This document shows, in pieces, positions 57,177 through 60,144 of a DNA stretch of 64,000 bases. Position numbers and translations under genes: made by a program. The notes under the pieces were generated by a model that saw nothing but the letters and a program-made list of their open reading frames with translations, had not been told where the DNA came from and searched no databases. Position 1 is the stretch's first letter. Every line of letters starts with the position of its first letter. The stretch spans positions 576,001 through 640,000 of the forward strand of contig JAHQWK010000001.1 in the NCBI GenBank assembly GCA_029856145.1. Reading direction: 5' to 3'. Origin of the DNA: Promethearchaeia archaeon. GTDB taxonomy: Archaea; Asgardarchaeota; Lokiarchaeia; Sigyniarchaeales; SOKP01.

Positions 57177-57764
57177 TTATGCACCTTTCTCTTTGTTATC
57201 CTTTTTTTTTTTAAAAAGAAAAGATAAGGCTACCCATAACGTAGAATAGATGATAATATTTCTTATATAAATTATTAAATCCTCATTATTGTAAGCCAAC
57301 TTTAAGAAATACACAGAAATTAGCCAAAAGATATTAATTGGAATAATATAAAGAACAAACTTCCTTGACAATGTTTCTCTTCTCTTCCAAATCAAATAAA
57401 TATCTATTATAACAGGAGTTATATGTATATAATCATAATAAAAAAATAAGAAAAAGAATTCATAGATGACTATTATACCAAGAGGTATAATTGAATAAAT
57501 TAAAAAATTATTTATGTATGGATTATCACGATAAAAAAGCCATGCCAATGAAAGTGAGAAATACCATTGGCTTAGAGTGAAAATAACTAAATTTGTGCCA
57601 GGATCTCCATGCTGCCTAACTCCGTAAAGAAAAGTGTCCAAAGGTTGCCACGAAAATGGGATTAAAAACTGGAATATTATTGATATTATTGTAGCAATCG
57701 TAATTTGAATTAAAGTTATCTTTGTTAGACTTAGATCGTTCAATTTAAATTTAGATTTAATCAT
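57177..57764 (-). CDS. Multi-pass membrane protein
   Basis: About 6 TM segments; YYDYIH motif. Confidence 0.72.
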   Translation of the reverse strand: MIKSKFKLNDLSLTKITLIQITIATIISIIFQFLIPFSWQPLDTFLYGVRQHGDPGTNLVIFTLSQWYFSLSLAWLFYRDNPYINNFLIYSIIPLGIIVIYEFFFLFFYYDYIHITPVIIDIYLIWKRRETLSRKFVLYIIPINIFWLISVYFLKLAYNNEDLIIYIRNIIIYSTLWVALSFLFKKKKDNKEKGA

Positions 57765-57877
57765 TGAATTTTCAAATTTTTAAATCATTATTATTTTTAC
57801 TAAATTATCAGAATCGCGTGTTATGATAAGAAAAAGATATAAATTTTATACATTCTTTTATAAATTAACTTCTCAAT

Positions 57878-58043
57878 GGGGACTTGGTGTAGTTTTCCAA
57901 GCAATATCGCTTAGTAAGCACAACCCGGTGGCACAGCAGGCTCCAGATCCTACAAGCAAAAGCTGTTCCGTGGACACCTGTCGGTCGGGGGTTCAAAATG
58001 GATTGCCTACGGCGCATTCCATGATCATATCCCTCAGTCCCCA
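57878..58043 (+). tRNA. tRNA-Trp(CCA) with three introns: 57893-57923 (15/16), about 57947-57975 (37/38 or 38/39) and 57997-58028 (58/59)
   Basis: Spliced 74-nt cloverleaf GGGGACU UG GUGU AGCCCGGUG GCAC A GCAGG CUCCAGA CCUGU CGGUC GGGGG UUCAAAU CCCUC AGUCCCC A; bulge-helix-bulge-like motifs at the junctions; 3' CCA not encoded. Confidence 0.9.
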
Positions 58044-58239
58044 TCTTTTTCATGCTAATCAATTACATTTCCGTCATTCGATAAGAATAGATTAATTTAC
58101 ACTTAGATAATATAGGTGATAATCGAATTTTATTAATTTTTTCAAAATTTCAATGAGGGAATATTTTCGTGAAAGCCCGATTTCACGCTCATTTTTGTCT
58201 TCTCAAAATCCTAAATATTTTGAGGGTAAAAATAAAAAA

Positions 58240-60144
58240 TTAGAGGTTTTTTAGCCTCTCTTGTTCTTTTTGCTTCTTTTTTTCTAATTTTTTCTTTTGC
58301 TTTTCTAGCTTTTTTCGCTTTTTTGCTTCTAGTTTTGCTACTTTTTCTTTTTGTTTTCTTTCTTGTTTCAATCTTTCAAGTTCTTGTTTTTTTTTTTCAA
58401 TAGCTTCTATTTCTTTCCTCTCCTTCTCTATACGTTCTTTTTCTAATCTGATTTGTTCTTGCTTTACCTTTTCTATTTTTTCTAACCTTGCTTTTTCTAG
58501 TTGTTCTTGCCTTCTCCTCTCCTCTTCCTTTCGAATTCTTATCAGACGTTCTCTTTCTTGTCTTTCCTTTTCTTGCTTTTCTCTTATTTTTCTTTCCCTT
58601 TCCATTCTTTCAATTCTTTCCTGCTCCAAACGAATACTTTCTAATCTTTCTCTTTCTTTTCGAGCTTCTTCTTCAAGGTCAAAAATCCATTTTCCTACTG
58701 TTCGGAGTAATTCTTGTTTTTCTTTTAATGGTAATCCATAGTTTGGTTCCTTTTTCAAGAAGATGTTAGCATGTTTACTCATTTCCCATATTTTTTTCTG
58801 TTCGGTTGTTGTTGCGCTTACACCTATTTGCCTCATACTTTCTCTAGCGATTTCAAATGCTTGTCCAATAGATCTCATTTCGTAGTCTTCATCTATAACT
58901 TTTCTAAGATATAATAAAATTTGTTTAACGTCAGGCTTAGGGGGATTTGGTAATGGTTTAGACTCTACCTTTTTGGATTTTAATGTTTCTAACTCAAATT
59001 TTTCTTGTTTGTGGTCGGGTATTTTTATGGGGCTAATACTAGGTTGTTGAATATCATTTTGGAGAAGATAAGCGGGGTACTCTTCTGTTTTAGACAAAAC
59101 TGGGGTCTCTTTTTTTGCTTTTCTTTTAAATTGGACGGGCCAACTGACAAAGGAATACAAACGGTCTTCTGCAGAGGTAAAAATAGATTCTTTAGACGTT
59201 TTTGTATTGATTGATTTGCTTTTTTTCGAAGAGATTTGTGGTATATTGGAGTTTAGCATTGTCGATGCCTTTTCTGTTATAGAGAAGAGATACATTGGAT
59301 CATACTCAAGATTAGAATAAATACTTTTCAAATAGTCAATATTACCTTCTATAACACTGAGATTTACATGAGATATTGTTTCTTGTAAATGTTGATCTGC
59401 TGCAAAAATAATTCCATCTAATCCAGCTGTTGAATTTAGGTAAGAAGTATCGGGATTTCCTCTCATTTTATCAGAAACTAAAATTTGATTGTAAAAATCC
59501 CAATGTGTACTCAAAAGCATATGACCATCTTTAGCAATTTGATAGGAATCGTCTTTACGGATTCTTTCCATCATTTCCAAAAATATATCTTTATTAGGTA
59601 TGAAAACATTTCTCATTAATGCCCCTTTTATGAAAGTTAGATGATTCTCTGATTTATAAGACAAGTCTACAGGGACTTTAATCACTTTTTCTGCTATGAT
59701 AACATCTCGATCTTCTTCTAAAGTTATATTTCCTGAAGTAGCCATGTGGTCATATACAAAGTCTGATAGTACTAATCCTGTCAATATTCTATTATCGGTA
59801 ATATATTTACCAGATTCTAATTCAAATTTTAGGAAATAATATCCTAAGCCAAATAGGTAATGAAGCGTTCCTTTTGCAGTCTCAATTGAATAGTCATAAC
59901 CGCTTAAAAATATAACTGCATCTGAGACTATTTTTGACACTGGATGATGGACATAGGTTCCTAATGTAGGATAACCTAATAAATCACTCCAACTAGGTAT
60001 CATAAAAAGAGAGTCATGGGGAAATAATTTATTCTCCTTTTTTTGTTTTTCAATTCTTTCTTTTTCAAGCTGTTCTTTTTCAAATCGCTCTTTTTCTAAC
60101 CTTTCATTTTCCAACTGTTCTTCATTTATTTTCTCTATTCCCAT
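58240..60144 (-). CDS. Hypothetical protein with a long E/R/K-rich charged helical C-terminus
   Basis: Globular middle region; about 145-aa ER/K low-complexity tail and a similar short N-terminal stretch. Confidence 0.72.
   Translation of the reverse strand: MGIEKINEEQLENERLEKERFEKEQLEKERIEKQKKENKLFPHDSLFMIPSWSDLLGYPTLGTYVHHPVSKIVSDAVIFLSGYDYSIETAKGTLHYLFGLGYYFLKFELESGKYITDNRILTGLVLSDFVYDHMATSGNITLEEDRDVIIAEKVIKVPVDLSYKSENHLTFIKGALMRNVFIPNKDIFLEMMERIRKDDSYQIAKDGHMLLSTHWDFYNQILVSDKMRGNPDTSYLNSTAGLDGIIFAADQHLQETISHVNLSVIEGNIDYLKSIYSNLEYDPMYLFSITEKASTMLNSNIPQISSKKSKSINTKTSKESIFTSAEDRLYSFVSWPVQFKRKAKKETPVLSKTEEYPAYLLQNDIQQPSISPIKIPDHKQEKFELETLKSKKVESKPLPNPPKPDVKQILLYLRKVIDEDYEMRSIGQAFEIARESMRQIGVSATTTEQKKIWEMSKHANIFLKKEPNYGLPLKEKQELLRTVGKWIFDLEEEARKERERLESIRLEQERIERMERERKIREKQEKERQERERLIRIRKEEERRRQEQLEKARLEKIEKVKQEQIRLEKERIEKERKEIEAIEKKKQELERLKQERKQKEKVAKLEAKKRKKLEKQKKKLEKKKQKEQERLKNL

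Follow-up and report, generated by a model that had tools for sequence, protein, structure and literature searches.

Three introns in the tRNA-Trp(CCA) gene of a Lokiarchaeia archaeon and their varying combinations among congeneric genomes

Whether a tryptophan tRNA is encoded by 166 nt at positions 57878-58043 on the forward strand of the window (the whole 64,000-nt stretch of DNA that was analysed) is not evident from standard annotation. The unspliced locus receives no ARAGORN call and no Rfam match (all models, E up to 10). A sequence-only reading had proposed that removal of segments of 31, 29 and 32 nt leaves a 74-nt cloverleaf with the anticodon CCA, and this proposal is borne out. ARAGORN calls the 74 nt that remain tRNA-Trp(CCA), and all 37 distinct orthologues gathered from congeneric genomes also reduce to a 74-nt mature sequence, which is identical to that of the window in 16 of them. 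The host is a Promethearchaeota (Lokiarchaeia) archaeon represented by a draft genome of 32 contigs and 3.55 Mb, 97% complete with an estimated contamination of 5.4%, in which the locus is the sole tRNA-Trp(CCA) gene detected. On this and the evidence below, the locus is very probably a functional three-intron tRNA-Trp(CCA) gene of its host, and probably the only one, with splicing by EndA and RtcB as the expected route. Its parts are as follows.

57829-57844, forward strand: putative promoter, in which a BRE-like stretch of purines (AGAAAAA) precedes a TATA-like box (GATATAAAT), 34-49 nt ahead of the 5' end of the mature tRNA
57878-58043, forward strand: coding region of the pre-tRNA-Trp(CCA), 166 nt, four exons and three introns, CCA end not encoded
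57878-57892, forward strand: exon 1, with the acceptor 5' strand, U8, G9, the D-stem 5' strand GUGU, A14 and G15
57893-57923, forward strand: intron 1, D-loop 15/16, 31 nt, whose GCAC and the D-stem 5' strand together form the central bulge-helix-bulge (BHB) helix and whose interior folds into a hairpin
57924-57946, forward strand: exon 2, with the remaining D-loop (including GG), the D-stem 3' strand, the anticodon stem 5' strand and the anticodon loop through G37
57943-57945, forward strand: anticodon CCA, within exon 2
57947-57975, forward strand: intron 2, anticodon loop 37/38, 29 nt, relaxed BHB, without box C/D motifs
57976-57996, forward strand: exon 3, with A38, the anticodon stem 3' strand, the variable loop CGGUC, the T-stem 5' strand GGGGG and the T-loop UUCAA
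57997-58028, forward strand: intron 3, T-loop 58/59, 32 nt, near-canonical hBHBh' whose central helix contains a single U-U mismatch and whose inner hairpin spans 9 bp
58029-58043, forward strand: exon 4, with A59, U60, the T-stem 3' strand CCCUC, the acceptor 3' strand AGUCCCC and the discriminator A73
58044-58050, forward strand: T-rich trailer TCTTTTT, a putative archaeal transcription stop directly after the discriminator A

The mature tRNA has a 7-bp acceptor stem (GGGGACU/AGUCCCC) with discriminator A, a D-stem GUGU/GCAC, an anticodon stem GCAGG/CCUGU and a T-arm GGGGG-UUCAAAU-CCCUC, and the spliced sequence carries the conserved tRNA nucleotides U8, A14, G18-G19, U33, G53-U54-U55-C56-A58, C61 and A73. 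An A at position 73 is the discriminator of archaeal and eukaryal-type tRNA-Trp. The G+C content is 65% in the exons and 43.5% in the introns, with a genome value of about 30%. This composition, the congeneric orthologues and the recovery of the gene by a search blind to the earlier coordinates show that the cloverleaf is no chance resemblance.

Orthologues were gathered by BLAST of the locus against congeneric genomes, and the matches skip precisely the proposed introns. Mature-sequence identity among the 37 distinct genes has a median of 98.6% and a minimum of 85%; exon 1 is invariant in alignment A1 except at position 9, and varies at positions 9, 12 and 13 across all 37. The exons of orthologues that lack the inserts match identically. 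The introns occupy six sites in the genus (15/16, 22/23, 37/38, 46/47, 58/59 and 59/60) and occur in the following combinations.

Anticodon intron only: 5 distinct genes
Anticodon and T-loop introns: 16 distinct genes
D-loop (15/16) and anticodon introns: 6 distinct genes
D-loop (15/16), anticodon and T-loop introns: 6 distinct genes, that of the window among them
D-stem (22/23), anticodon and T-loop introns: 3 distinct genes
Anticodon, variable-loop and T-loop introns: 1 distinct gene

The D-loop intron is precisely missing from 25 of the 37 orthologues, and its junction is unambiguous. The T-loop intron is precisely missing from 11 of them and is replaced by unrelated sequences in others. 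All 37 orthologues have an anticodon intron of 28-29 nt, with no intron-less allele among them. The T-loop and anticodon junctions each allow a one-base slide that leaves the product unchanged; for intron 2 of the window, a shift to 57948-57976 (38/39) gives the identical product. At the rarer sites, the D-stem inserts lie in the 3' strand (22/23) and are 31 nt long (L142, L146 and L007, in G054, G058 and G011), and the variable-loop insert, at about 46/47, is also 31 nt long (L143, G052:C33).

Conservation extends upstream of the exons. Median identity among the orthologues is 73% over the 60 nt upstream versus 33% over the 30 nt downstream; a conserved AGAAAAAnATATAAAT element lies within the upstream 60 nt (window 57829-57844), and the promoter-like element AGAAAAAnATATAAATTTCAT is found upstream of nearly all 37 orthologues, most of which are followed by T-rich trailers. 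The BRE/TATA-like element is likely the promoter of the tRNA-Trp gene, and the TCTTTTT trailer is likely an archaeal transcription stop. Because the exons are near-invariant, the upstream sequence is far better conserved than the downstream sequence and the upstream element is retained, the locus is read as an independently transcribed gene that appears to be under purifying selection, and not as a pseudogene.

The folds of the inserts were assessed by comparative counts and not by a minimum-free-energy fold, which, computed for the whole precursor, lacks the full set of three BHB motifs. With a strict two-plus-one bulge geometry, at least three of the four central-helix pairs form in all 79 intron instances at the six sites across the genus. 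At the locus itself the D-loop intron has 4/4 pairs, the T-loop intron 3/4 (with the U-U mismatch), and the anticodon intron 3/4 if the register is 37/38 and 4/4 if it is 38/39. In the T-loop fold, helix h pairs G49-G52 with U60-C63, followed by the bulge AA^A, the pairing of G53-C56 with GAUC, the bulge AU^A and the 9-bp inner hairpin. The position, bulges, GUUC/GAUC helix and AUGGA/UCCAU closure given for this intron in the sequence-only reading are all present, and the U-U mismatch in GUUC/GAUC, which it did not mention, is to be added. Among 16 homologous T-loop introns 90.8% of the cells are paired, versus at most 59% with slid partners, and 7 pairs are changed on both sides; four of five measures gave a value that none of the shuffles attained, and for the fifth, the count of pairs changed on both sides, 7 of 500 shuffles attained it. 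Of the outer helices, h' (the inner hairpin) covaries and h hardly varies. This covariation gives strong support to the predicted T-loop fold.

In the D-loop fold, G10-U13 pairs with the GCAC of the intron; the bulges are AG^U and AA^C, and the inner hairpin is interrupted. This is the 15/16 arrangement proposed earlier, including the intron GCAC that mimics the D-stem 3' strand, and its junction is backed by the orthologues without the intron. The BHB has 85.7% of its cells paired, versus at most 50% in slid controls, and there are only 2 compensatory pairs because the D-loop introns are close relatives; support from covariation for the predicted fold is moderate. Its outer helix h has 3/4 pairs and overlaps the acceptor stem, with which it would compete, and h' is present.

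For the anticodon intron, the anticodon stem serves as helix h, and h' does not directly adjoin the bulge. The UCCA/UGGA motif proposed for it, as a relaxed motif at 37/38 or 38/39, is present and perfect in the window, but pairs of it are lost in 4 and in 9 of 23 distinct orthologues. The 37/38 register has a constant mismatch at C34, tolerates the substitutions that break UCCA/UGGA and appears to fit the orthologues at least as well; the same product comes from both registers, neither is proven, and the register is best regarded as ambiguous. By these comparative counts the T-loop intron is classed as near-canonical and the D-loop and anticodon introns as relaxed.

The host genome encodes enzymes of the type expected for such introns. 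Two EndA paralogues are present as ORFs of 198 and 205 aa, both with PF01974 and PF02778, and the close relatives of the EndA gene are from Promethearchaeota/Promethearchaeia (Lokiarchaeia), including the closed bins CP070831 and CP070805. The 198-aa alpha protein matches the catalytic subunit of Aeropyrum pernix (3P1Z_B) over its full length (E 1e-34) and has the triad Y139/H147/K178; in the alignment of its GSPLGINKPRLEYFSKP with GQPLDVEKPRGADFEGP of A. pernix, K56 stands opposite K44 of the Crenarchaea-specific loop (L1), the loop residue that confers broad specificity (PMC5829648). The 205-aa beta protein is most like the subunit of the Methanocaldococcus jannaschii homotetramer (1A79, E 4e-23) and keeps the Tyr and Lys, with Ser138 at the position of the catalytic His. 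The A. pernix (alpha-beta)2 endonuclease (PDB 3P1Z and 3AJV; structures of Hirata 2011 and Okuda 2011, as reported through PMC5829648) shares with the host's predicted proteins the triad, the loop lysine and a second, non-catalytic paralogue; it differs in that the beta protein of the host resembles the M. jannaschii subunit. The (alpha-beta)2 type has already been assigned to Asgard archaea (PMC5829648). The expectation that the lineage has a broad-specificity endonuclease, put forward from the locus alone, is supported by this architecture of a catalytic alpha with K56 and a His-less beta, for which an (alpha-beta)2 enzyme is predicted. A gene for the RtcB ligase is also present.

Maturation would then proceed by transcription from the gene's own conserved BRE/TATA-like promoter with a stop at the T-run, which would yield a 166-nt precursor with three BHB introns: that of the T-loop as a near-canonical hBHBh', that of the D-loop formed through the GCAC mimic of the D-stem 3' strand, and that of the anticodon loop as a relaxed bulge-helix. 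The heteromeric EndA would cut each intron in both bulges, with alpha catalytic and beta structural, and RtcB would join the exons; we infer cleavage and ligation, and with them any order of splicing, from the folds and the enzyme genes. RNase P, 3' trimming and CCA addition would give the finished 74-nt tRNA.

A decaying or silenced tRNA-Trp pseudogene with insertions, its function taken over by another tRNA-Trp, would equally escape standard finders, which are blind to the unspliced locus, and the genome has many hidden tRNAs, so that a second hidden copy is conceivable. Decay is nevertheless hard to reconcile with exons that are near-invariant in 37 genomes while the flanks diverge, with a conserved promoter-like element and with compensatory changes that maintain the BHB folds of the inserts. 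The same locus is a detectable tRNA-Trp in relatives, and a second CCA tRNA is absent from every search; a pseudogene is therefore considered very improbable. A second CCA-anticodon tRNA was searched for in the host genome, and none was found by ARAGORN, Rfam, exon BLAST or a strict intron-aware census, which a dissimilar copy could escape.

There is a similarly slight chance that the tRNA is functional and that at least one insert is retained as an expansion of the D-loop or T-loop, or is excised by some pathway that does not use EndA and RtcB. Splicing is here a prediction from sequence, and some D-arm insertions of Asgard archaea lack a canonical motif and are perhaps not introns (10.64898/2026.10.13.758758). 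Against retention, both inserts have two bulges and four pairs, placed so that the cuts are in register, and orthologues free of the inserts have identical exons. The L-shape of tRNA relies on contacts between the D-loop and the T-loop, which 31-32 nt after G15 or A58 would disrupt. The least probable reading, one with hardly any chance of being right, is that the locus encodes a small protein, since a 90-aa ORF on the forward strand (57823-58095) and a 65-aa ORF on the reverse strand (57865-58062) are both open. Neither has a Pfam match, and tblastn matches split into separate frames wherever an orthologue is without an intron. The indels between close relatives measure 29-32 nt, in most cases not divisible by three, and are incompatible with a conserved frame, so the two overlapping ORFs cannot be conserved genes and were rightly dismissed as spurious from the start. 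The preferred reading remains that of a functional, spliced tRNA-Trp gene.

The detectability of the gene in the genus follows its intron content. ARAGORN calls tRNA-Trp in all five orthologues that have the canonical intron alone, modelling the anticodon intron as a canonical intron; among the remaining 32 it makes no Trp call and miscalls one as tRNA-Leu. Rfam RF00005 scores 49 bits on two of the orthologues with the canonical intron only and gives nothing on variants with one extra intron. For the whole host genome ARAGORN lists 27 tRNAs, several of them doubtful, with none for Ala, Asn, Asp, Cys, His, Trp or Tyr, and Rfam finds 25 above its threshold. With some 25-27 tRNAs found in a genome that is 97% complete, the suspicion that standard scans miss tRNAs of this lineage proved well founded.

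A screen of G+C islands for hidden tRNAs returned 480 unexplained islands; it was too unspecific and was dropped in favour of an anchored census. The census used perfect acceptor and T stems as anchors, allowed a T-loop insert, and was followed by brute-force deletions; it is strict and incomplete, and some of its calls are ambiguous owing to the tolerance of ARAGORN. With one further brute-force deletion it re-found the locus as tRNA-Trp without use of the coordinates of the sequence-only reading. Removal of a T-loop insert of 30-31 nt alone allowed ARAGORN to call six more tRNAs in the host genome (G000), listed below by contig, and T-loop introns of this size are thus common in it.

C2, 140214-140345, forward strand: tRNA-His (GTG)
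C8, 2036-2166, reverse strand: tRNA-Ser (GGA)
C13, 142545-142666, reverse strand: tRNA-Cys (GCA)
C18, 78431-78565, reverse strand: tRNA-Ser (TGA)
C18, 78293-78396, reverse strand: tRNA-Lys (CTT)
C22, 60527-60628, reverse strand: tRNA-Gly (GCC)

Ordinary pipelines would report the host genome and most of the genus as lacking tRNA-Trp and several other tRNAs, and inferences on completeness and codon usage for Lokiarchaeia bins should allow for hidden tRNAs.

The intron of euryarchaeal tRNA-Trp (Haloferax, Pyrococcus) lies at 37/38 in the anticodon loop and carries a box C/D guide RNA. The anticodon intron of the host shares this position but, at 29 nt, is too short for a guide, as had been anticipated, and has neither a C box (RUGAUGA or UGAUGA) nor a D box (CUGA), and the region has no match to a snoRNA family (Rfam, E up to 10). 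Up to three introns per tRNA, in the D-loop, anticodon loop and T-loop, are described for Thermoproteales (Sugahara et al. 2008 and Fujishima et al. 2010, as cited in later papers). [quoted passage not shown] The earlier view that triple-intron tRNAs are known mainly from Thermoproteales is outdated, since they are now published for Asgard archaea (PMC11291895; 10.64898/2026.10.13.758758). In three Asgard genomes 92-95% of the tRNA genes have introns, and more than half of the tRNA genes have several (PMC11291895). According to the preprint of Goswami et al. (10.64898/2026.10.13.758758, October 2026), which treats other Asgard families, tRNAscan-SE misses about 30% of Asgard inserts, mostly in the D-arm; repeated intron gains were reconstructed, most genomes have a two-paralogue EndA, splicing of Asgard inserts is not yet demonstrated, and how BHB introns are gained is a central open problem. 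Its text mentions neither Loki nor Prometh, and for Asgard families outside its main set it gives only a lower average burden. In Lokiarchaeum, an intron of 31 nt lies in the T-loop of tRNA-Sec (Mariotti et al. 2016, PMC4989117), which resembles the present case in phylum, intron size class and T-loop location and differs in being a single intron, versus three in tRNA-Trp.

Multi-intron tRNAs that are missed by annotators, and an (alpha-beta)2 EndA, have thus already been published for Asgard archaea (2018, 2024 and the 2026 preprint), and the present case adds a Lokiarchaeia genus to the range of a known phenomenon and is not of a new kind. It shares with the published cases (PMC11291895; 10.64898/2026.10.13.758758) short BHB-type introns, non-canonical sites, missed D-arm inserts, patchy distribution and a two-paralogue EndA, and it differs in concerning a Lokiarchaeia genus, with one gene traced through 37 congeners and six sites. 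The heavily interrupted tRNA phenotype, published for Atabeyarchaeia and Freyarchaeia, is now found in a widespread marine Lokiarchaeia genus together with the matching EndA type. One 74-nt gene with near-invariant exons and many intron combinations in 37 congeners amounts to a natural experiment that bears on the gain of BHB introns. The pattern is known here for one genus, as the BLAST search detected no tRNA-Trp in genera of the order other than this one.

Intron states were mapped on a tree of a 1,122-nt segment of rpoB from the 37 genomes, that is, on one gene from metagenome bins with 3-9% contamination. The minimum numbers of changes on this tree are as follows.

15/16 intron: 8 changes
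22/23 intron: 4 changes
T-loop intron, presence or absence: 9 changes
T-loop intron, sequence family: 15 changes

Intron content differs between genomes with near-identical rpoB (G050 versus G051, G011 versus G043, and among G004, G045 and G066), and the closest relatives of the window are without both extra introns. The D-loop intron of the window is identical to that of G041, a member of another clade, and its promoter flank is, by eye, of the type of its own clade. At least four unrelated families of T-loop intron sequence, judged by eye, are found across the genus. Such patterns are compatible with lateral spread or with very rapid gain and loss. Since six BHB-compatible sites and at least four T-loop families are in use, near-identical genomes differ and a D-loop intron identical to that of G041 is present, it is possible, though on the doubtful side, that the introns of about 30 nt in this genus are a mobile population passing from species to species and from site to site, beyond inheritance and loss. 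Given the single-gene tree, the contaminated bins and the two copies in G001, mobility is treated as a lead and not as a result; if it is true and not a product of mis-binning, tRNA-Trp would be a tractable natural system for studying the arrival of archaeal BHB introns. The genome G001, with two different tRNA-Trp genes, has 9% contamination. When every tRNA-Trp intron known in the genus was searched for in the host genome with blastn-short, the matches, in AT-rich coding or intergenic DNA, were at chance level only, and at this sensitivity there is no evidence of intragenomic copying.

A tRNA-Lys(CUU) gene of a congener (L019:1457-1565, G014:C57) has the T-arm of tRNA-Trp and a 30-nt intron at 58/59 that belongs, by eye, to the T-loop family of the window, which hints at the sharing of introns between different tRNA genes. 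One contig (G067:C50, L138) carries a whole tRNA-Trp allele of the window type, with its exons and its anticodon and D-loop introns, which the sister genomes G017 and G024 do not; this points to either transfer of the gene or mis-binning of the contig.

Several orthologous loci have the flanking genes of the window, including one with the canonical intron alone (L008). Two of these genes, of 634 aa (58240-60144, reverse strand) and 195 aa (57177-57764, reverse strand), have no match in Pfam and lie beside tRNA-Trp in 13-15 of the 37 loci, with 60-77% identity. Upstream lies a gene for a 165-aa double zinc-ribbon protein (PF12773; 55899-56396, forward strand), with conserved synteny at 7 of the 37 loci.
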